43,041 nt of DNA from a virus (lineage: Duplodnaviria > Heunggongvirae > Uroviricota > Caudoviricetes): IMG/VR virus record IMGVR_UViG_2744054964_000002, positions 1-43,041 of that record; one strand, 5' to 3'. The notes under the pieces are model-generated. The model worked only from the letters and a program-made list of their open reading frames with translations, did not search any database and was not told where the DNA came from. Every line of letters begins with the position of its first letter. Positions within the stretch are counted from its first letter, which is position 1. The translations under genes were made by a program, and so were the position numbers. Shown piece after piece: positions 3,158 to 27,970 of the stretch.

Positions 3158-3771
3158 GCTGCACGCTCTGTGATTTTCTGAATTTCCGATTCCAGATCTG
3201 CAAGGAAGCTCTTAACCTCAGATTCGATTTCGCGCGCCAGCTCTTCATCGAAATGAATCCGCTTCTTGAAATAGGCGAGGTCAGGCGGCAGGCGATCATC
3301 GAAACTAACGAAATCACACCATTTCCGCCCGGTGCACATCATCTGTGCATGCATTTGCAGCATGTACTGGCGCTTTGGCTCACCAGTTTTCAGCGTTTCA
3401 AGATGGGTCCAGGTGTTGGGGCATTTGATTTCGATAAGCCCGTCGTCGTTGACAAGTCCGTCCGGGCTGGCTGCGAATCCGGGTATGGTTGGGTGATCGA
3501 TGAGCCCAACTTCAGTGATTGCCGCATTGAACTCATTCAGCGCGTACATTTCGCGTGCCACTGGCTCAAGTTCAGTGCCGCGCATCATCGCGGCATTCGA
3601 AAACCCTTCCTCCAGCTTCCCGGTCAGCCGTTGGCAAATCAGCTCGGCCATGTAGTTCTGGCGGCTGGTGGAGTAGCCCGACTTAGTCCGGGCCATGACA
3701 TCAGCCAGGCGACTGGCTGTGACCTTGCCGCAGCGCGCAGCAAACCATTCAGGGGTGCGTTGCTCTATCAT
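3154..3771 (-). CDS. YqaJ-type phage exonuclease (PD-(D/E)XK, lambda-Exo-like functional partner of RecT)
   Basis: 205-aa ORF; N-terminal MIEQRTPEWFAARCGKVTASRLADVMA is the characteristic YqaJ viral recombinase domain start; sits directly downstream of recT with 4-nt overlap. Confidence 0.85.
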   Translation of the reverse strand: MIEQRTPEWFAARCGKVTASRLADVMARTKSGYSTSRQNYMAELICQRLTGKLEEGFSNAAMMRGTELEPVAREMYALNEFNAAITEVGLIDHPTIPGFAASPDGLVNDDGLIEIKCPNTWTHLETLKTGEPKRQYMLQMHAQMMCTGRKWCDFVSFDDRLPPDLAYFKKRIHFDEELAREIESEVKSFLADLESEIQKITERAA

Positions 3772-4529
3772 TCAGCCTCCGTCTCTGCGACATTGACAGG
3801 TTCGGCGTTGTCGACAGCAAGACTCATGTCATACATGCGTCGTTTCTCAACTGCGCCGATCACCTGTTTCTCTTCGGCGCTCAGCGCCACCCAGAACTCC
3901 TGATACTTAACGGTTCCAAGGCGCGCGGCGGACTCACCTTTTGCGATCAGTTCCGGGCGGCGGCTATCTGATTCATGGCCCGCATGAACCTCTGCCGTTG
4001 TTCCTTCAATTACTCGCTCTGCCTCGTCCTGGTCGAAGATGCCAGCGAAACCAAAGGCCAGACGCGCGCACTGGATCAGCGTCTTGTGGCGAAGCATGCG
4101 GGTAGGGTGGGACTGCCATGGCTGAGTGTTGCGTTTGCACTCTCCCATGTACTCGGTGACGATGGTCGGGTGCTTACGGTCTTTGCGGTAAATCTTGCAG
4201 GTACACGCGCCTTCCTCCTTGTCGTAAGAGAACTCCATGCCGTCAAACTGAGGATGCTCGTTGATAATGCGAGCCCATCCATCAACGCCGACGACCGGGA
4301 CAATCCCGCCTTTATCTGGGAATGCGTAAATCTCTTTGGTCCATGGGTTCAGGCCATACTGGTTGGCGACGATCAGCAGGGCTGTAAACTGCTCGTCCGT
4401 GACGTTGCCACCTTTGAACGCTGTATTCTTCAGCGTATTCATCAGGTCTGTACCGGCATCCATGCCGAGGCGTGCGGCCAGTTTCCCGGCCATGGTGGAA
4501 AGTGCAGTACTCATTGTTAAATCCCTCAA
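3768..4529 (-). CDS. recT: RecT-family single-strand annealing recombinase
   Basis: 253-aa ORF; core segment LLIVANQYGLNPWTKEIYAF...GVDGWARI is typical of RecT/Bet-like annealing proteins; paired with the YqaJ exonuclease. Confidence 0.9.
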   Translation of the reverse strand: MRDLTMSTALSTMAGKLAARLGMDAGTDLMNTLKNTAFKGGNVTDEQFTALLIVANQYGLNPWTKEIYAFPDKGGIVPVVGVDGWARIINEHPQFDGMEFSYDKEEGACTCKIYRKDRKHPTIVTEYMGECKRNTQPWQSHPTRMLRHKTLIQCARLAFGFAGIFDQDEAERVIEGTTAEVHAGHESDSRRPELIAKGESAARLGTVKYQEFWVALSAEEKQVIGAVEKRRMYDMSLAVDNAEPVNVAETEAE

Positions 4530-17142: not shown

Positions 17143-17832
17143 ATGAACAGTCAGCAACTGGAATACGTACGTCAGCAGCTCATTGTGGCGACCGCAGACC
17201 TCAGCGGGGCGACGAAAGGGCAGCTGGTAGCTTTCGCCGAAAACGCGCAGTTCACCGCGACGGCGCGCAGCCGGGGCAGGAAGAAAATCACCGACCCGGT
17301 CACTGGTCGGAAAGTTAACCCTGACGGCCCGGCGATGAGCGGCAGCCAGTCCCGCGCAAAGGGATCATCTATCGCGCTGGTGGGGCCGGTTGAGTTTGTG
17401 ACCGCATCGTGGCGCCGCGCGGTGCTGTCGCTTGAAGACCACCAGAAAGCATGGCTTCTGTGGAACTACAGCGAGAATATCCGCTTCGAGTACCAGGTGG
17501 CGATAACTCAGTGGGCATGGGCAGAGTTCAGGGAACAGCTCGGCGCGAAGAAAGTGGCGGGCAAGACGATGGAGCGCCTGAAGAAGCTTGTCTGGCTCGC
17601 GGCTCAGGACGTGAAAGCAGAGCTGGCAGGGCGTGAGATGTACGAATATCAGGCGCTGGCGTCGCTGGTTGGCGTAACGCCAAAAAACTGGTCAGAGACC
17701 TTTACTGACCGCTGGGTTGAGATGCGCAGCATCTTCCTGCGACTGGATAGCGGGGCTTTATTGCAGGTTACGCGATCACGTTCACAACAAAAGGCGACAA
17801 ATTTAGACTCAAGTCTTGCAAAACTGGATTGA
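17143..17832 (+). CDS. Putative late-gene antiterminator (Q-like)
   Basis: 229-aa ORF located between rusA and the late promoter/terminator, as Q is in lambdoid phages; assignment by position and general resemblance, not a confident family match. Confidence 0.5.
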   Translation: MNSQQLEYVRQQLIVATADLSGATKGQLVAFAENAQFTATARSRGRKKITDPVTGRKVNPDGPAMSGSQSRAKGSSIALVGPVEFVTASWRRAVLSLEDHQKAWLLWNYSENIRFEYQVAITQWAWAEFREQLGAKKVAGKTMERLKKLVWLAAQDVKAELAGREMYEYQALASLVGVTPKNWSETFTDRWVEMRSIFLRLDSGALLQVTRSRSQQKATNLDSSLAKLD

Positions 17833-17844
17833 AACGCATATATT
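17816..17844 (+). promoter_or_regulatory. Candidate late promoter pR' (with expected qut region just downstream)
   Basis: -35 TTGCAA (17816-17821), 17-nt spacer, -10 TATATT (17839-17844); overlaps the 3' end of the Q-like gene. Confidence 0.5.
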
Positions 17845-17897
17845 TCATGTAAATCTGATATCGTCGCCATAGCTTCGTAGGTCGACAAAGAATTAAG

Positions 17898-17922
17898 AAC
17901 CCGCCATCGAGCGGGTTTTTTG
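17898..17922 (+). terminator. Rho-independent terminator (tR'-like)
   Basis: CCCGC-CATCGA-GCGGG stem-loop followed by TTTTTTG, about 50-70 nt downstream of the candidate pR' start. Confidence 0.65.
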
Positions 17923-18190
17923 TCGAAACTTTGTTTTTATATTTGGATTGTTACGTGCATCAAAAAAGATGATGAATAATCCAAAAAAGCCGTTTTTATG
18001 AGCTTTTAATCCCTTTTTTACTTGTCAAATCTGTAATTGACTCGCTATAGTCTGTTTAGTTCTTTATCAAAAAGACTCTTTTAAAGCCTCGTTTTGAGGC
18101 TTTTCGTGTATTTAAAGACCGTAAATCACTACATCTTGTGTTTGTTGTTTTGTTTTTGAGCTAGATGTAGCTATAACGAGGGACAAAATC

Positions 18191-18391
18191 ATGGGCGCTG
18201 CAGAATTTTACGAAAAAGTAGGTATTAAATCAGAGGAACTCCATAAAGGTGAATCTGTACAACACTATGCTATGCGCGTTCTTGCTCAGCAAGACGACCA
18301 GGCTATACGTAGTGGTGTTCTATACTCCTACAGCACTGTAAGTTCAGTTGAAGCTGTAGAGCAACAATCTCATCAACTGTACTCATATTGA
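18191..18391 (+). CDS. Hypothetical small protein (66 aa); first gene of the Q-lysis junction cassette
   Basis: ATG after GAGGGA RBS; AT-rich leader with promoter-like TTGTCA-18nt-TATAGT (18022-18051) and an 8-bp hairpin (18083-18103); no recognised motif. Confidence 0.5.
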   Translation: MGAAEFYEKVGIKSEELHKGESVQHYAMRVLAQQDDQAIRSGVLYSYSTVSSVEAVEQQSHQLYSY

Positions 18392-18403
18392 TAAAAGAAG
18401 AAC

Positions 18404-19303
18404 ATGCCAAATTGGATAGACGTGTTGGGCGAGATGGGTACTATTGCTCAACGTACACCAGCGGATGAGGTTCGCCACAAGTACTTACGAGAGTTGTCGA
18501 AGCATACAGGCCGAAACGTAATTTCATATTACTCAGGCTTCCTCCAGAAGGGGGGGCCTGGGTTGCAGCATTTAATACAAATGTCAGATGACGATAAAAA
18601 TGGTCTTATGTCAGCCATTAACGGCTTAGACACGTCATTAGGGCTGGATATCTTGCTTCATACCCCAGGGGGAGATATTGCAGCATTGGAATCTATTGGT
18701 CATTATCTTCGTTCAAAATTTGGGACCAATATCCGGGCAATTGTTCCTATGATCTCAATGAGTTGTGGGACCATGTTGGCTTGCTGTGCCGAACAGATTG
18801 TATTGGGCAAACAGTCAAATTTGGGGCCAATTGATCCGCAGCTTGGTGGTTTATCATCTCATGCGATCATAGAAGAGTATGAGCGAGCTAAGAAAGAGAT
18901 TTCTGAAAATGCTGCAGCGATCCAATGGTGGCAATTTACTCTTCAAAAGCTAAACCCGACTCTCATTGGTGAATGTGAAAAGGCTATTGTTTGGGCTAAT
19001 GAAATAGTACAAAAATGGCTGTGTACTGGTATGTTTGCAGGTCATGCTAACGCTCAAGATAAGGCTAAGCGAATTTGTGATGAGCTAAACAATCATCATA
19101 CAACCTATGCGCATGCTAGACATATTCATCTGGATAAAGCGCAAAGCATTGGTTTGAACATTATGGAGCTGGAGAGCGACCAAACTCTGCAGGATCTTGT
19201 GCTGACTATACATCATTGCTACATGCATTCATTTGGTACGAGTCCTGCTGCGAAAATTATTGAAAATCATAATGGCAGCACGATGATGTGGAATATTCGC
19301 TAA
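18404..19303 (+). CDS. ClpP/crotonase-fold serine peptidase-like protein (S49/SDH-like); second cassette gene
   Basis: 299-aa ORF; LLHTPGGDI resembles the xxSPGG oxyanion-hole motif of ClpP/SppA-fold peptidases; candidate nucleophile in MISMSCGTMLA; AT-rich by eye. Family call is motif-based only. Confidence 0.55.
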   Translation: MPNWIDVLGEMGTIAQRTPADEVRHKYLRELSKHTGRNVISYYSGFLQKGGPGLQHLIQMSDDDKNGLMSAINGLDTSLGLDILLHTPGGDIAALESIGHYLRSKFGTNIRAIVPMISMSCGTMLACCAEQIVLGKQSNLGPIDPQLGGLSSHAIIEEYERAKKEISENAAAIQWWQFTLQKLNPTLIGECEKAIVWANEIVQKWLCTGMFAGHANAQDKAKRICDELNNHHTTYAHARHIHLDKAQSIGLNIMELESDQTLQDLVLTIHHCYMHSFGTSPAAKIIENHNGSTMMWNIR

Positions 19304-19326
19304 ACGATATATCCTCGAATCACATA

Positions 19327-19352
19327 AGGCCACCTTCGGGTGGCCTTTTTTA
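19327..19352 (+). terminator. Rho-independent terminator closing the cassette
   Basis: AGGCCACC-TTCG-GGTGGCCT (8-bp stem) followed by TTTTTT. Confidence 0.7.
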
Positions 19353-19397: not shown

Positions 19398-19793
19398 ATG
19401 TCCGATCCTGTTTCTGGCACTACGGTCGCGGCTGGTGGCCTGATGGGAGCCAGCGTATTTGGTCTTGCAACCGGTATTGATTATGGCGTGGTATTTGGCG
19501 CATTCGCTGGTGCAGTATTTTATGTAGCGACAGCGGCAAATATCACACGAGTACGATTGATTGCTTACTTCATGACGTCATTCATTGTTGGCGTTCTTGC
19601 CGCTGGACTGGTGGGTTCAAAGCTGTCACAGGCTACCGGGTATAGTGACAGACCATTAGACGCACTTGGTGCTGTTGTAGTGGCGGCGATGACAATCAAA
19701 GTGCTCACATTTTTCAACAGTCAGGATTTGGGAAGCCTGTTCAGTATTCTTTCGCGATTCCGTGGAGGAGGGGCCAGCAATGGTAACAAGTGA
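19398..19793 (+). CDS. Putative holin (multi-pass membrane protein)
   Basis: 131-aa ORF after AGAGGGGG RBS; three hydrophobic segments rich in Gly/Ala; immediately upstream of the endolysin. Confidence 0.65.
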   Translation: MSDPVSGTTVAAGGLMGASVFGLATGIDYGVVFGAFAGAVFYVATAANITRVRLIAYFMTSFIVGVLAAGLVGSKLSQATGYSDRPLDALGAVVVAAMTIKVLTFFNSQDLGSLFSILSRFRGGGASNGNK

Positions 19794-20061
19794 TCCGTCA
19801 GCGATGGTGAATGCAGGTATTTGTGCGGTCATCGTCCTTGTCCTGATGTTCTACCAGCGTGAAGGGGCAAGACATCGCCCCGCTATATCATTGCTGGCGT
19901 ACTTCGTTGTGCTGGTTTATGCCAGCGTTCCATTCCGATATCTGTTCGGCCTCTACCAGGAGTCACACTGGATGGTGGTCATCGTAAACCTTCTTATTTG
20001 CGCTGCCGTGTTATGGGCTCGTGGGAATGTGGCGCGTCTCGTTGATACGCTGAGGCATTAA
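19780..20061 (+). CDS. Second lysis-cassette membrane protein (holin/antiholin-like)
   Basis: 93-aa ORF from ATG 19780 (GGAGGAGGGG RBS), overlapping the holin stop; at least two hydrophobic helices; stop overlaps the endolysin ATG (TAATG). Confidence 0.5.
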   Translation: MVTSDPSAMVNAGICAVIVLVLMFYQREGARHRPAISLLAYFVVLVYASVPFRYLFGLYQESHWMVVIVNLLICAAVLWARGNVARLVDTLRH

Positions 20062-20678
20062 TGAACCAATCACAATTTCAACAGGCGGCTGGTGTAAGCG
20101 CCGGGTTAGCTACGCGCTGGTTTCCGCACATTGACGCGGCAATGAAAGAGTTCGGCATTGTTAAGCCTGAAGACCAGGCAATGTTTATTGCTCAGTCAGG
20201 ACATGAATCAGCGGGATTCTCTGCGCTGGTGGAGAGCTTCAACTACACCCCAGCCGCTCTGCTGACCACATTTGGACGCCGCATTACGAACTATCAGGCA
20301 TATATGCTTGGGCGTGACAAAGAAAAAGGGCACGTAGCCAATCAGCCAGCCATTGCAAATCTGGTGTACAGCAATCGCCTCGGTAACAAAGCATCAGGCG
20401 ATGGGTGGAAATATCGTGGCCGTGGGCTGATTCAGATTACCGGTCTTGATAATTACCGCCGCTGCGGAACGGGATTAAAACTGGATTTAGTCAGTAATCC
20501 TGAGTTGCTGGAAAAGGATATCAACGCGGCACGTTCAGCTGCATGGTTCTACGCCACCAGCGGATGCCTGAGCTATTCCGGCGATCTGGTTCGCATCACC
20601 CAGATCATCAATGGTGGACAGAACGGCATTAACGACCGTCGTGCACGCTACGCCAAAGCAAAAGCCGCACTGGTATGA
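20061..20678 (+). CDS. Endolysin, glycoside hydrolase family 19 (chitinase-like lysozyme)
   Basis: 205-aa ORF; FIAQSGHESAGF and YRGRGLIQITGLDNY are GH19 catalytic-region motifs; high overall similarity by eye to known Salmonella-phage GH19 endolysins. Confidence 0.9.
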   Translation: MNQSQFQQAAGVSAGLATRWFPHIDAAMKEFGIVKPEDQAMFIAQSGHESAGFSALVESFNYTPAALLTTFGRRITNYQAYMLGRDKEKGHVANQPAIANLVYSNRLGNKASGDGWKYRGRGLIQITGLDNYRRCGTGLKLDLVSNPELLEKDINAARSAAWFYATSGCLSYSGDLVRITQIINGGQNGINDRRARYAKAKAALV

Positions 20679-20685
20679 GGTCGCT

Positions 20686-20961
20686 ATGGGACTTGAAATG
20701 ATTATCGGCCTGGCTGTTGCTGTGCTGGCTGCAATTGCAGGTGCTTTTGGTCTGGGTAAATCGCGCGGTACTAACATCGCTGAGACAAAAGCGGACCAGC
20801 AACGCACTGAAGAACGTGCAACAGCTACTGAAGCTGTTGCTGAACGCCGGGTAGAAACAACGAAAGAGGCCAGCAATGTACAGCAGAGTGTTAACCATAT
20901 GCTTGGCGACGATGTTGATCGTGAGCTGCGCAACAACTGGACCCGCCCCGGTAGTCGTTGA
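20686..20961 (+). CDS. i-spanin (Rz-like)
   Basis: 91-aa ORF from ATG 20686; N-terminal TM helix (IIGLAVAVLAAIAGAFGL) then charged coiled-coil region; follows the endolysin. Confidence 0.65.
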   Translation: MGLEMIIGLAVAVLAAIAGAFGLGKSRGTNIAETKADQQRTEERATATEAVAERRVETTKEASNVQQSVNHMLGDDVDRELRNNWTRPGSR

Positions 20962-21127
20962 TACCGCCTGTGATTGGGTAAAGCCCATCTATCTTACTGA
21001 CCACGATATTGCCGTTATGGATAAGCAGACGAAGCGCGACATCCTAGTGCATAACAAAGCATGGAAGGTGAACTGTAATCCCAAAAAGGTAAAGACGAGC
21101 ACTCTAAAATTTGTGGACAAGCCATGA
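20876..21127 (+). CDS. o-spanin (Rz1-like lipoprotein), overlapping the i-spanin in another frame
   Basis: 83-aa ORF starting inside the Rz-like gene; signal/lipobox-like TMLIVSC followed by a Pro-containing mature region. Confidence 0.6.
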   Translation: MYSRVLTICLATMLIVSCATTGPAPVVVDTACDWVKPIYLTDHDIAVMDKQTKRDILVHNKAWKVNCNPKKVKTSTLKFVDKP

Positions 21128-23427: not shown

Positions 23428-23996
23428 TGACCACGATGAACCAGAGTCAGTACGCACAACATTCAGGTGTGGATCGCAAAACAATTGGTCGGTGGATTAA
23501 AGCCGGGCGCTTCATTGTGATGGACGGAGACCTGATTGACGTAGAGGCCAGCGATGCGGCATTGAAGAAAAACCGCGATGGCAAAGACCCGCGCGCCTCG
23601 AACGCGAAGAAAAAGAAAACTCCCGTCGTTAGCGATAACGATGATGACGGTGATGAAATCAATAAAACTGTCCGCCAGATAATGCTCACTGAAGGGGCAG
23701 ATCTTTCGAGAGAGGAAGCGGGACGTATCCGCGAGAATTACATGGCCCTGCAGGCAAAGCTGCAGTATGAAAAAGACAGCGGCCAGCTTATTGAGCTGAC
23801 AGCAGCCGAGGAGGTTTTATTCAACGCCTTTCGCCAACAGCGTGATGCCTGGCTTAACTGGCCGTCCAGGGTGGCGCCGCTAATGGCTGCTGATCTGGAT
23901 GTACCGGCGGACAGGATGACAGAGGTGCTGATTGAACATGTCCACAAACACATCTCAGTCCTCGGAGAGCCAGAGTTTAACCCGGCAGAAGATTGA
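23427..23996 (+). CDS. Terminase small subunit (lambda Nu1-like)
   Basis: 189-aa ORF; N-terminal HTH-like YAQHSGVDRKTIGRWIKAG similar to Nu1 N-terminus; immediately upstream of the large terminase. Confidence 0.75.
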   Translation: MTTMNQSQYAQHSGVDRKTIGRWIKAGRFIVMDGDLIDVEASDAALKKNRDGKDPRASNAKKKKTPVVSDNDDDGDEINKTVRQIMLTEGADLSREEAGRIRENYMALQAKLQYEKDSGQLIELTAAEEVLFNAFRQQRDAWLNWPSRVAPLMAADLDVPADRMTEVLIEHVHKHISVLGEPEFNPAED

Positions 23997-26061
23997 GCGT
24001 CTTGAATTAAGCGTCCGCAAAGGCTGGACACCCCCGCCGCGTATCAGTGTGCCGCAGTGGGCAGATGACTATCGTAAGCTGGCAAAAGAGGCTGGGAGCA
24101 CTTCGGGAAACTGGGAAACATCGACGGTAGAAATTGCCCGCGGACCGATGCTTGCCGCGACGGAGTCCGGGGTTCATATCATCACTGTAATGTGCTGTAC
24201 CCAGTTGATGAAGACAGCACTGCTGGAAAACCTTTTTGGCTATTTTGCCCACCTCGATCCTTGTCCGATACTGCTGCTGCAGCCGAAAGAAGAAGCCGCT
24301 GAACAGTTTTCGAAAGAGCGTATTAGCCCGCTGGTAAGGGTGACGCCGGTACTGCGTAAAATCATCGGTGATTCGAAACAGAAAAGCTCGAAAGAAACCA
24401 TTCTTTACAAGGCGTTCACTGGCGGATTTCTGGCGCTGGCGGGTGCTGGTAGCCCTGATAACCTTGCGCGTCGTCCGATTCGTGTCCTGCTGGCGGATGA
24501 AGTGGACAAGTACCCGATAACCCGCGAAGGCGATCCAATTGCGCTGGCCGAAGAGCGTACAGCGACATTTGGCCTGACCTGGCTGTCTGTACGCGCCTGT
24601 TCGCCGACGGTGGAGGATGAGAGCCGCATTGCTGACAGCTACGCCGACTCCGATCAGCGCCGGGCATCTGTGGTTTGCCCGCACTGTGGCCACCGCCAGT
24701 TCCCCGACTTTTTCAAACACGTTCAGTGGCCGAAAGAGGGAGATAAACACCTGACTAAATCGGCGATGCTCTATTGCGAATGCTGTGGTAGTGGCTGGTC
24801 CGAAGGACAGCGCCTCAGAGCTCTGCAAACTATTCGATGGCATCAGACGCGCCCATTTGAGTGCTGCGGGGAGCGGCACTCACCGCTGATGGATTATGAC
24901 CTTGCCTGGCGGGCGGCAGACGAGGGCAGCGTTGAAAAGGTCTGGCAATGGTCAGAGTCGGAACGGCATGCGGTCTATCGCGCAATCTGCCCCTCCTGTG
25001 GAAAGGAGGCAGTCGATAACCACCACGCGGGGTACCAGGCATCCAAGCTTTTCAGCCCCTGGCAAAAAGATAAGCCGTCGGATATTGCGAAAAAATATAT
25101 CGATGCGAAGGGCGATCCGGATAAGGAACAGGCGTGGTGGAATACCCAGATGGGGCTTCCGCACCGACCTAATCATGGGAAACAGCTCCCTGTTGATGTT
25201 CTGCTGGCGCGCCGGGAAATATTTCCGGCCGTCGTTCCGGACGGGGTGGCATTGTTAACAGCTGGAGTTGATACCCAGGACGATCGCTTCGAAATTACGA
25301 TCACCGGCTGGGGGAGAGATGAAGAATCGTGGTCGGTCGCGCATGACGTTATTTATGGTGACCTTGAGACGGAAGAACCCTGGAAGCGACTGGATGCATA
25401 CCTGAAACAGATCTGGCGACGTGGTGACGGGCGCGGCCTGAATATCATGGCAACGTGCATGGACTCCGGTGGCCACCATACGCAGAAGGTATACGAATTC
25501 GCCAAAGAGCGTCTTGGCCGTCGTGTCTGGGCAATTAAGGGGGAGTCTGCACAGGGAGGTAAACGCAATCCTGTCTGGCCGACCAAACGACCATCATCGA
25601 AAAGCAAAGCCAGTTTCCGCCCTGTCATTCTGGGGGTTAACTCAGCGAAAGACGTGATACGCGGTCGCCTGCATCTTGAGCCACCCAAACCTGGCGCCGC
25701 CGCTGCGGGTTATATGCATTTTCCTGACGATCGCGATCTCGGGTACTTCAATCAGCTGCTGGCGGAGCGACTGGTTTACAAAGTCATTTCCGGGCAGCGG
25801 TACAGTATCTGGGAAGCAATACCAGGACGAGCTAACGAAGCGCTTGACTGCCTCGTTTACAGCTATGCCGCGCTGTGCGGTCTCAAACATATGGGGTTAA
25901 AACTCAACGTCCGGGCCGCCAACCTCGAAGCCGATCCGGATAAGTTCCTGCCAGCGCCAGTTGGACAGGAAGAAAAAATCAATTACGAGCTGCCGGGTGC
26001 GGTTATTGAAGAACCAGCGCCGGTCAAACGTAAGCGAATATCGCAACTCCTGCCGAAATAA
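23938..26061 (+). CDS. Terminase large subunit (lambda gpA family)
   Basis: About 707 aa from ATG 23938; blocks align by eye with lambda gpA (VCPHCGHRQF vs ACPHCGEEQY; LTAGVDTQDDRFEITITGWGRDEESW vs LTAGIDSQLDRYEMRVWGWGPGEESW; ANEALDCLVYSYAAL vs RNEALDCFVYALAAL). Confidence 0.9.
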   Translation: MSTNTSQSSESQSLTRQKIERLELSVRKGWTPPPRISVPQWADDYRKLAKEAGSTSGNWETSTVEIARGPMLAATESGVHIITVMCCTQLMKTALLENLFGYFAHLDPCPILLLQPKEEAAEQFSKERISPLVRVTPVLRKIIGDSKQKSSKETILYKAFTGGFLALAGAGSPDNLARRPIRVLLADEVDKYPITREGDPIALAEERTATFGLTWLSVRACSPTVEDESRIADSYADSDQRRASVVCPHCGHRQFPDFFKHVQWPKEGDKHLTKSAMLYCECCGSGWSEGQRLRALQTIRWHQTRPFECCGERHSPLMDYDLAWRAADEGSVEKVWQWSESERHAVYRAICPSCGKEAVDNHHAGYQASKLFSPWQKDKPSDIAKKYIDAKGDPDKEQAWWNTQMGLPHRPNHGKQLPVDVLLARREIFPAVVPDGVALLTAGVDTQDDRFEITITGWGRDEESWSVAHDVIYGDLETEEPWKRLDAYLKQIWRRGDGRGLNIMATCMDSGGHHTQKVYEFAKERLGRRVWAIKGESAQGGKRNPVWPTKRPSSKSKASFRPVILGVNSAKDVIRGRLHLEPPKPGAAAAGYMHFPDDRDLGYFNQLLAERLVYKVISGQRYSIWEAIPGRANEALDCLVYSYAALCGLKHMGLKLNVRAANLEADPDKFLPAPVGQEEKINYELPGAVIEEPAPVKRKRISQLLPK

Positions 26062-26069
26062 GGAAAATC

Positions 26070-26333
26070 ATGTTCAACCGGAACACCAGCCTGCTTGCCG
26101 GCGCAATGACTGACGATCAGCTCAGGGATGCGCTTGCGAAAGCTCAGCAGGCGTACATTGATTTAGCAACCGGGAGCCACGGTGTTTCGTTTTCCTATAC
26201 GCAGGGAGACGGGACGCGATCAGTGTCCTATCAGCAAAGCACCCTAGCTGATCTGCTGGCCCTGATTCAACTTCTGCAGGCGCAACTGGGGATTATCTCT
26301 CGTCCCCGGAAACCAGCGAGGTTTAGATTCTGA
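26070..26333 (+). CDS. Head-tail joining protein (lambda gpW-like)
   Basis: 87-aa ORF between terminase and portal; pattern L..A..A..DL.TG...DG.R.V.F...L..I..L..Q.G...R.P..F parallels lambda gpW. Confidence 0.7.
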   Translation: MFNRNTSLLAGAMTDDQLRDALAKAQQAYIDLATGSHGVSFSYTQGDGTRSVSYQQSTLADLLALIQLLQAQLGIISRPRKPARFRF

Positions 26334-27970
26334 TGAATAAAGTACAGATACTGGGCTCTGATGGGCAGCCGTTGCGACAGCAGCGTCCCTCTATGCTGGT
26401 GGGGGGGAGCCGCGTACCTTATGACGCAGCTGACTCTTTCAGCGATCAACTGGCGAACTGGCAACCCGCGCTGTGGTCCCCGGACAATGAAATTAACATT
26501 TACCGGGATCGCATCGTGTCCCGCGCACGCGATCTGGTCCGTAATGACGGCTGGGCAAACGGTGCGGTCACACGTCTGCTGGATAATGCGGTTGGTGCCA
26601 ACTTCCGCCCCATCATGAAACCCGATTACCGTGTTCTCAGAATGATCACCGGAAACAAGGCGTTTGATGCGTCCTGGGCGGAAGAGTACGGAAAAGCACT
26701 GGACGGGCACTGGCGGACCTGGAGTAACGATCCTGGCCGGTATTGTGATGTTGAACGAAAACTCACCGTGTCGCAGATGTTACGCCTGGGATTTCGTCAC
26801 AAGCTTATTGACGGGGATGCTCTGGCCATTCTCCAGTACAGAACTGACAGGCTTGGTCCCGGAAGAGGGCGTTACGCCACCACGGTACAGATTGTCGATC
26901 CTGACCGCCTCAGTAATCCTCAGCAGAATTTCGATATGCCAAATGTCCGTGGTGGCGTTGAAATTGATGCGGACGGTGCGCCGGTTGCTTACCACATCAG
27001 GGAGGCCCATATCGGTGACTGGTGGAGCGGGGCTAAAACCATGACGTGGCAGCGTATCCCGCGTGAAACTGACTGGGGCCGCCCGCATGTGGTTCACGAT
27101 TTTGATCATGAGCGTGGCGCGCAGCACCGTGGTAACGGCATCCTGACTCCGGTTATTCAGCGTCTGAAAATGCTGGTGAAGTATGACCAGAGTGAGCTTG
27201 AGGCAGCAATTCTTAATGCCATATTTGCCGCTTACATTGAGTCACCCTATGACCCTGCGATGGTTCAGTCTGCCCTGGGCGAGACCTATGACGAGTCGGA
27301 GTTAGGCACTTATCAGGACGGGCGTGTTGAGTTCCATAACGATCGGCGTCTGACACTTCAGAATGGTGCCCGAATGCCCATTCTTTATCCTGGTGAGAAA
27401 ATCACGACGGTTAACGCGGCGCGGCCCTACAGCAATTTTGAAGTCTTCGAATCTGCTGTTCTCCGTAATTTTTCTTCAGGAACAGGGTTGTCCCCACAGC
27501 AGGTCACCCAGGACTGGTCTGACGTTAACTACAGTTCTGCACGCTCCTCGTTGCTGGAGGCATGGAAAACACTGACTCGCCGCCGGGACGATTTTTCTAC
27601 CGGCTTCGCTCAGCCCATTCTCACCGCCTTTGTTGAAGAAGTTCACGACAATGAGGATTTACCCCTGCCCGCAGGCGCACCTGATTTTGTTGACGCCAGA
27701 GCCGCGTATTCTCGCGCGCGCTGGATGGGGCCAGGGCGCGGCTGGGTGGATCCGGTTGCAGAGAAAAAAGGCGCCATTCTTGGTCTGGATGCCGGACTTT
27801 CCACCCTCGAGATTGAGGTGGGTGAAAACGTCGGTGAAGACTGGGAAGAAGTGCTTGATCAGCGCCAGAGAGAAATTGAGTCATGTCTTAAACGCGGATT
27901 ACCGCTTCCGAGCTGGGCACAGGTTGACCAGTTTGCGAGCCAGACCATTACCGATCCGGAGGAAAAGTGA
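26333..27970 (+). CDS. Portal protein (lambda gpB family)
   Basis: 545-aa ORF; DLVRNDGWANGAV and VFESAVLRNFSSGTGLSPQQVTQDWSDVNYSSARSSLLEAW align with lambda gpB segments. Confidence 0.9.
   Translation: MNKVQILGSDGQPLRQQRPSMLVGGSRVPYDAADSFSDQLANWQPALWSPDNEINIYRDRIVSRARDLVRNDGWANGAVTRLLDNAVGANFRPIMKPDYRVLRMITGNKAFDASWAEEYGKALDGHWRTWSNDPGRYCDVERKLTVSQMLRLGFRHKLIDGDALAILQYRTDRLGPGRGRYATTVQIVDPDRLSNPQQNFDMPNVRGGVEIDADGAPVAYHIREAHIGDWWSGAKTMTWQRIPRETDWGRPHVVHDFDHERGAQHRGNGILTPVIQRLKMLVKYDQSELEAAILNAIFAAYIESPYDPAMVQSALGETYDESELGTYQDGRVEFHNDRRLTLQNGARMPILYPGEKITTVNAARPYSNFEVFESAVLRNFSSGTGLSPQQVTQDWSDVNYSSARSSLLEAWKTLTRRRDDFSTGFAQPILTAFVEEVHDNEDLPLPAGAPDFVDARAAYSRARWMGPGRGWVDPVAEKKGAILGLDAGLSTLEIEVGENVGEDWEEVLDQRQREIESCLKRGLPLPSWAQVDQFASQTITDPEEK

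Follow-up and report, generated by a model that had tools for sequence, protein, structure and literature searches.

A probable phage-82-type late control module with an isrJ-family leader at the 3' end of a Q82-family gene in a lambdoid phage

The segment following the Q-like gene of this tailed phage (Caudoviricetes) is most probably a late-gene control module, composed of a promoter pR', a Q-utilisation site, a leader and a terminator tR', of a lambdoid phage with an antiterminator of the phage 82 Q family; we put the probability of this reading at about 0.88. The DNA analysed, referred to as the window, comprises the 43,041 nucleotides of the virus record IMGVR_UViG_2744054964_000002, and the features discussed below are collected in Table 1. 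The sequence elements of such a module, its homology to the 82 type, its conservation, its gene order and its Rfam membership are all present in the window. The element belongs both to the late control modules of the phage 82 type and to the Rfam family isrJ, and is as such a known kind of switch.

Table 1. Coordinates of the late control module and of the surrounding features in the window
Feature	Position	Strand	Remarks
Q82-family late antiterminator gene, 229 aa	17143..17832	+	ORF; PF06323 Phage_antiter_Q
pR' -35 hexamer TTGCAA	17816..17821	+	In all 114 Q-selected sources (with a search pattern that demanded it) and in a 10-sequence alignment
17-nt spacer AACTGGATTGAAACGCA, candidate Q-binding element	17822..17838	+	Q stop codon TGA inside, -21 to -19
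pR' -10 hexamer TATATT	17839..17844	+	A-11 and T-7 invariant in 78 unique Q-selected modules
Rfam RF01393 (isrJ) match	17848..17920	+	Model 1-75/75; 58.7 bits, gathering threshold 37; E 2.1e-8 over the whole window
Inferred transcription start (+1), first A of AAATCTG	17851	+	7 nt after the -10 hexamer
Predicted sigma-70-dependent pause element: extended -10 TG, -10-like TATCGT, GC-rich CGCC	17856..17868	+	Agrees with 82 pR' as published
Weak mid-leader hairpin (GUCGCC ... GGUCGAC)	17863..17886	+	Stem 1 of the Rfam isrJ model
Predicted promoter-proximal pause, +25 (T)/+26 (C), inferred Q loading point	17875..17876	+	From the register with 82 pR'
Intrinsic terminator tR': core stem CCCGC/GCGGG plus A-U pairs, loop CATCGA	17895..17922	+	Six-T run 17916-17921
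Low-GC moron	17923..19350	+	Directly after the terminator
Promoter-like site in moron	18022-18051		10/12 consensus match
Hairpin in moron	18083-18103		
SDH/ClpP-like protease ORF in moron	18404-19303	+	
Strong terminator	19326-19347		Bounds the moron
First late genes: two holin-family ORFs (PF16931, PF05449), GH19 endolysin (PF00182), candidate spanin ORFs	19398..21127	+	
Lambda-type terminase gpA (PF05876/PF20454)	23932-26061	+	
Portal (PF05136)	26333-27970	+	

The original prediction called the gene upstream of the promoter Q-like, and this was borne out by the Pfam search, in which the ORF matched PF06323 over its full length (E 3e-87, 292 bits, profile positions 1-218 of 220). In the structural literature, where Q proteins are divided into three families unrelated to one another, PF06323 has been equated with the Q82 family (PMC9388147). 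The window protein is 61-66% identical to AntQ of Gifsy-1, Q of phage 434 and Q of E. coli phage 689R5, and a sequence search of the PDB gave no solved relative. The best Q relatives come from Enterobacter genomes, which suggests that Enterobacter is probably also the host of the phage in the window. Q is preceded by genes of the nin region, which comprise a metallophosphatase gene, a YbcO-like ORF and RusA, while the lysis, terminase and portal genes are all found 3' of the module on the same strand; the candidate spanin ORFs among them have no Pfam match and were assigned from position only. Between the terminator and the lysis genes there is a moron with a GC content of 35-44% versus 55-60%, which holds a 66-aa ORF in addition to the protease ORF, and neither of these two ORFs gave a match in a comparison with PADLOC. 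The order nin, Q, moron, lysis and morphogenesis is the canonical lambdoid order. That the arrangement is the one expected for Q-dependent late antitermination, as had been proposed, is supported by the homology to the 82-type late regulatory region and by the late genes on the same strand.

The predicted promoter, TTGCAA and TATATT 17 nt apart and overlapping the end of the Q-like gene, is indeed found at 17816-17844. The final codons of Q (..A K L D stop) supply the -35 hexamer together with the first half of the spacer, and the TGA stop at 17830-17832 lies within the spacer. The description of this promoter as near-consensus was generous, since it matches the consensus at only 9/12 positions. 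The promoter scan gave 11 sites in 12 kb, as compared to 12.0 +/- 3.4 in shuffled sequences, and a 9/12 score alone is not above chance. Such a density would be in line with a fortuitous promoter match, in which case the hairpin would simply terminate the early rightward (nin-Q) operon and the late genes would be driven from elsewhere, for instance from the better match (10/12) in the moron, 200 bp further downstream; a terminator after the last early gene is also sensible by itself. We regard this explanation as very improbable, because the downstream site is located inside a low-GC insert which is absent from relatives, and it can therefore not be the late promoter of the family. Moreover, no variation is found at the -35, -10 and pause positions among 78 unique modules that represent many genera, a conservation which exceeds that of the adjacent coding sequence, and where relatives have an insertion after Q, as for the HNH gene in the relative L077 and the c4/antirepressor cassette in Gifsy-1, the block is kept intact downstream of it. 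The evidence beyond chance for the promoter and terminator block comes from homology and not from the consensus match.

In phage 82 the Q-binding element has been placed between the -35 and -10 hexamers (PMC4914094). The spacer of the window is conserved, but its invariant positions coincide with the last codons and the stop of Q, and for this reason it is a candidate Q-binding element only. A CII-dependent antisense promoter, paQ, is annotated in phage 434 over the same -35 region; this was considered for the window and rejected, as the reverse complement TTGCAAGACTTGAG lacks the second TTGY repeat.

According to published work, 82 pR' has a -10-like element that begins at +9 and is preceded by an extended -10; further landmarks are GCC at +15-17, a stretch rich in A and T at +18-25 and a pause at +25 (U)/+26 (PMC5001585). 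Coliphage 689R5, which encodes a Q of 229 aa with 66% identity to that of the window, has the sequence AAATCTGATATTTTGCCGATTTTGT after TTGCAA-17-TATATT-TCATGC, and this agrees with every published landmark if the first A is taken as +1. The 82 register used here is the fit of this coliphage sequence to the published verbal description of 82 pR'; a full-text literature search for ATCTGATATTTTGCC, as the sequence of 82 pR' in text form, gave no match. In the same register the start of transcription in the window would be at 17851, and the initial transcribed sequence from this putative +1 reads AAATCTGATATCGTCGCCATAGCTTC. It has AAA at +1, TG at +6/+7, TATCGT at +9 to +14 and CGCC at +15 to +18, and position +25 is a T. 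A+10 and T+14, the second and sixth bases of the pause hexamer, are both invariant, and T+25 is conserved with 1.76 bits among the 78 unique modules. Initiation at 82 pR' is reportedly prone to slippage, going by the title of a 1990 paper by Guo and Roberts, and the AAA at +1 of the window would fit such a start. The 5' end of the Rfam isrJ model, and of IsrJ as given in 2008, corresponds to 17848, 3 nt upstream of the predicted +1.

The module of the window resembles that of phage 82 in having a Q of PF06323, a -35 hexamer overlapping the end of Q, and a short leader leading to an intrinsic terminator which is followed by lysis genes. The two also have a common register of AAA at +1, TG at +6/+7, a -10-like element at +9 to +14, a GC-rich stretch at +15 to +17/18 and T at +25. 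Differences within the 82 type are found in the -10-like element (TATCGT in the window, TATTTT in coliphage 689R5) and in the discriminator, which at +15-17 is CGC(C) in the window and not GCC as in phage 82. Over the stretch from -35 to +26, window and coliphage 689R5 have 77% identity, whereas the leader past +18 is unrelated, and the Q of the window is approximately 66% identical to the coliphage Q proteins. In phage 434, the Q of which is annotated as 'Q82-like', this promoter is found again, with a terminator placed about 55 nt after the start.

The sequence comparison of the region between promoter and terminator, which the original prediction had suggested, was carried out across Q82-family loci. 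Among loci chosen by similarity of the Q protein alone, all 29 species genomes (61-96% identity) and all 80 viral loci had the module at the 3' end of the Q gene, and for the sampled Q82-family genes as a whole it was found there in 114/114 sources, each matching a regular expression that demanded the TTGCAA hexamer. In the converse search, where viral contigs were searched for the 16-mer CATGTAAATCTGATAT, a Q82-type gene was located just upstream in 77 of the 80 loci listed; of the other three, two (L145 and L177) match by chance within sequence that is unrelated, and the third lacks DNA upstream. The positions that are invariant or nearly so in the 78 unique modules are A-11, T-7, A+2, T+4, G+7, T+9, A+10, T+11, T+14, C+17 (nearly invariant) and T+25, while +12/+13 and everything past +25 are variable. 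Past approximately +25 the leaders fall into at least nine classes unrelated to each other, and at the position of tR' the relatives have at least 25 different terminator hairpin sequences, each with a T-run. Of the 172 unique modules, 162 (94%) have a terminator whose end is no further than about 85 nt from +1, while the same detector gave one in 96/3000 random segments (3%). The comparison therefore shows a promoter and a pause element conserved up to +25, a variable leader beyond this point and a terminator that is kept. A cis-acting Q-loading site would predict such a pattern, in which the DNA is invariant as far as the pause site and the leader is free to vary while a terminator is kept; a shared trans-acting seed would not.

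The terminator hairpin of the window has the sequence AAGAACCCGC-CATCGA-GCGGGTTTTT and is followed by a run of six T. It had been expected about 50-70 nt after the promoter, which holds for the stem, as this begins 51-54 nt past the -10 hexamer (at 17895 or 17898, depending on the A-U pairs counted), and the end of the T-run is at 77 nt. The terminator scanner lists this terminator on the minus strand only (17917..17898), as the maximal extension of the plus-strand stem uses the T-run. Folding of the RNA from 17851 to 17922 gave a terminal hairpin of 10 bp with a U-tail and a minimum free energy of -20.6 kcal/mol (z = -2.6, 3/200 shuffles as good). Compensatory changes were found at 3/13 predicted pairs, all three in the terminator stem. 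With the tR' annotated in phage Ayreon, a phage whose Q is of the lambda family, the terminator has 91% identity, and this indicates that terminator cassettes have been exchanged between Q systems. For the weak mid-leader hairpin of the window, the stability was not above that of shuffled sequences (354/1000), and there was no covariation signal in its stem, which is invariant within isrJ-type leaders. A mid-leader hairpin with its 5' arm over +11 to +18 recurs in several long leaders of distinct sequence, and this recurrence hints at selection at the RNA level.

Counted from the predicted start, the leader would be about 72 nt long and hence, as anticipated, much shorter than the 194-nt 6S RNA of phage lambda; a short leader is normal for the Q82 family, where the length is 50-85 nt and in some cases only about 55 nt. 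Apart from the claims of the original prediction, the analysis has added the pause signature of the 82 type, the membership in isrJ and the linkage to Q82-family genes. In relation to the lambda pR'-qut-tR'/6S system, the module of the window would work in the same way, yet it falls outside that family. Q of lambda belongs to PF03589 and that of the window to PF06323 only. The pause in lambda is at +16/17, in contrast to the predicted one at +25 in the window, where the element is shifted downstream by 9 bp. Similarity at the sequence level is confined to the terminator cassette held in common with Ayreon, a phage of the lambda-Q type.

The leader of the window is a full-length match to the Rfam isrJ model, and isrJ is the only Rfam family above threshold across the whole window. 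IsrJ is a 74-nt RNA of the Salmonella prophage Gifsy-1, which has been reported to depend on HilA and to be required for efficient invasion (PMC2330248), a role that is specific to its host. By megablast, the match between Gifsy-1 and the window covers 17816-17920 only, that is the promoter and the RNA, with 81% identity over this part. From -35 to +26 the identity is as high as 93%, compared to 64% for the Q genes at the DNA level and 61% for the Q proteins. The two RNAs are of similar length (about 72 nt in the window) and have two hairpins in common, but the terminator hairpin is of another sequence type. They also differ in that the module abuts Q in the window, whereas in Gifsy-1 it is separated from antQ and the isrJ block comes directly after anrP. 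The interval from antQ to the block holds isrK, which overlaps a match to Rfam c4-a1b1, a C4-type antisense RNA and the ORF6N antirepressor gene anrP. This c4/antirepressor segment looks like an immI-like cassette that has been inserted between Q and the late promoter. P_isrK, which lies directly after antQ, was considered as the Q target of Gifsy-1 and rejected, since its initial region ACGCCAGCAAAATCTGG lacks the motif TGnTATnnT that the isrJ promoter has.

Strong transcription of IsrJ in lysogens has been described for every condition that was examined (PMC7067206). A constitutive pR' with constitutive termination would yield such an expression (PMC7547250). From the sequence comparisons, IsrJ appears to be a late leader of Q82-type prophages in its terminated form, and this is the only modestly new point of the study; no link of IsrJ to a late promoter, or to antitermination at its own terminator, was found in the literature searched.

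The isrJ match, which is above the Rfam threshold, also brings up the possibility that the element is primarily the gene of a trans-acting, chaperone-binding sRNA, an IsrJ orthologue regulating host mRNAs in lysogeny, with the adjacency to Q being incidental. Deletion of isrJ reduced invasion and effector translocation in Salmonella (PMC2330248), and a precedent is found in StxS, an Hfq-binding sRNA derived from the terminated pR' transcript of Stx phages, for which processing by RNase E and targets have been shown (PMC7547250). StxS resembles the predicted RNA of the window in being a short RNA made constitutively from an antiterminated late promoter in lysogens (PMC7547250), and indicates that by-products of late leaders can gain trans-acting functions. 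The leader is also built like an sRNA, with the A/U-rich single strand AAAGAAUUAAG preceding the terminator and its U-tail in the folded RNA, and +26 to +45 is fairly conserved within isrJ-type leaders. Nevertheless, what is conserved throughout the family is the promoter and +1 to +25, which is not a plausible seed, whereas the sequence past +25 is replaced by nine unrelated classes and some leaders of about 55 nt are found. The Rfam isrJ model detects isrJ-type leaders only, and misses the 82-type, 434-type and short leaders that are located on the same promoter and pause module, and the module is strictly linked to genes of the Q82 family. In addition, the host of the phage in the window is probably an Enterobacter, for which a HilA/SPI-1 role is not known to have been described. 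Taken together, we find it improbable that the element is primarily a trans-acting sRNA gene. A dual function is less improbable, but we still hold it to be less likely than not: the leader could serve as the Q-loading and termination site and, in addition, the constitutively made RNA of the IsrJ family could act in trans in lysogens, in the manner of StxS, with mRNAs of the host or the phage as its targets, and conversely Salmonella IsrJ could be the terminated late leader of Gifsy-1, with P_isrJ as the natural target of AntQ. If this is true, the phenotypes of isrJ deletion and the toxicity of AntQ need to be re-read as matters of late-operon control.

As a late control module of the 82 type, the segment may be expected to function as follows, with start site, pause, Q binding and read-through all transferred from the biochemistry of phage 82. 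The sigma-70 RNA polymerase of the host would initiate constitutively at about 17851, sigma-70 would re-bind the -10-like sequence TGaTATCGT (+6 to +14), and the polymerase would pause near +25/+26. Without Q, the polymerase would escape from the pause and terminate at 17921-17923, so that an IsrJ-family RNA of about 72 nt is released. Once Q has accumulated, it may bind the spacer DNA and load onto the paused complex with the assistance of NusA, as it does in phage 82. The Q-modified polymerase would then pass tR' as well as the hairpin at 18083-18103 and the terminator at 19326-19347, and proceed into the lysis, terminase and head genes.

Similarity to the closest phages ends by 17925, a few bases past the T-run (at 17921 in the distant-mode search), and what follows the terminator differs widely between relatives, where dozens of sequences, in many cases tRNA genes or morons, take this place. 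This resembles a classical moron insertion point. The low-GC protease moron would accordingly be placed inside the Q-controlled unit, at the position which the stx genes have in Shiga-toxin phages.

For the phage in the window, the module would fix the start of late transcription and the site of Q action. The finding further joins two literatures that are unconnected in the papers searched, namely the biochemical work on the late promoter of phage 82 and that on the Salmonella sRNA IsrJ. The StxS paper lists the leaders of lambda, 21, phi80, 82 and P22 and cites IsrK, but not IsrJ (PMC7547250). If IsrJ is a late leader of the Q82 type, its constitutive expression in lysogens would be explained, and AntQ would gain an obvious natural target. 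RF01393 proves to be one branch of a far wider set of late leaders in prophages of Enterobacteriaceae. For the Q82 family itself, the only Q family still without a structure, the comparative set may be used as a ready mutational map, with an invariant promoter and pause, a free sequence past +25 and interchangeable terminators.

The extreme 3' end of the Q antiterminator gene carries an inserted HNH_3 endonuclease ORF in some close relatives (see table). Since the C-terminus of this ORF (..RLAKLD stop) rebuilds the -35 hexamer and the spacer, the late promoter is kept intact. The ORF looks like a homing-endonuclease insertion that spares the regulatory site. At the place corresponding to window 17808-17821, the record of phage 434 has a CII-binding site and the -35 signal of the anti-Q promoter paQ annotated on the minus strand (TTGCAATATTTTGC). 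The window's minus strand reads TTGCAAGACTTGAG, in which the second TTGY repeat is missing, so that no CII-dependent promoter against Q is evident here.

In the Salmonella prophage Gifsy-1, an inserted cassette separates antQ from the late-promoter module of isrJ. The isrK locus gives Rfam matches to the c4-a1b1 target, overlapping isrK, and to the C4 antisense RNA, 3' of which comes the ORF6N antirepressor gene anrP; this layout is the same as that of the immI-type c4-ant cassette of P1/P7. The TGnTATnnT pause element is present at the isrJ promoter and missing at the isrK promoter.

Several long leaders without sequence kinship (in phage 689R5, L011, L018, L024 and L170) keep a hairpin at about +11 to +39, with a 5' arm (+11 to +18) consisting of pause element and discriminator, and with arm pairs that include TTTTGCC/GGCAAAA, GCTGCC/GGCGGC and TGCCAtTG/CAcTGGCA. 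It is significant against shuffled sequences in L011, L018 and L170, is not so at the equivalent position of the window (354/1000), and is missing from leaders of about 55 nt.

Directly 3' of tR' in the window lies an insert of 35-44% GC, against 55-60% in the backbone. This insert is a moron, at the position where Shiga-toxin phages carry stx. Its 66-aa ORF gave no Pfam match, and neither of its two ORFs gave a PADLOC match. Downstream of the late leader, Rfam STnc100 matches were observed above threshold in a Kluyvera prophage and below it in phage 434; STnc100 is another catalogued 'sRNA' within the lambdoid late leader/moron region.

Coordinates of features in the window and in relative loci (L-numbers)
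Feature	Sequence	Position	Detail
HNH_3 ORF	L077	3684-4160	477 bp; PF13392, 7e-17
Further HNH_3 insertions at Q 3' end	L085, L089, L105, L107-L109, L165, L167, L183, L187, L188		
isrK locus	L001 (Gifsy-1)	3164-4000	c4-a1b1 target match, 48 bits
C4 antisense RNA	L001 (Gifsy-1)	3299-3382	69 bits
Leader hairpin	L004 (689R5)	2551-2579	
Leader hairpin equivalent	window	17863-17886	
Terminator cassette	window	17888-17922	AAGAACCCGCC..GGCGGGTTTTTT
Annotated tR'	L234 (Ayreon)	1500-1543	
Low-GC insert	window	17923-19350	
Promoter-like site in insert	window	18022-18051	TTGTCA-18-TATAGT, 10/12 match
Hairpin in insert	window	18083-18103	
SDH/ClpP-like serine protease ORF in insert	window		299 aa; PF01972
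Strong terminator closing insert	window	19326-19347	
STnc100	L027 (Kluyvera prophage)	4223-4411	71.7 bits
STnc100	L003 (434)	2700-2904	41.4 bits

The terminator cassette of the window has about 91% identity with the annotated tR' of phage Ayreon, the Q of which is of the lambda family (PF03589), and terminators of SfV, mEp460 and Stx2c phages also match it. Different Q systems thus have terminators in common.
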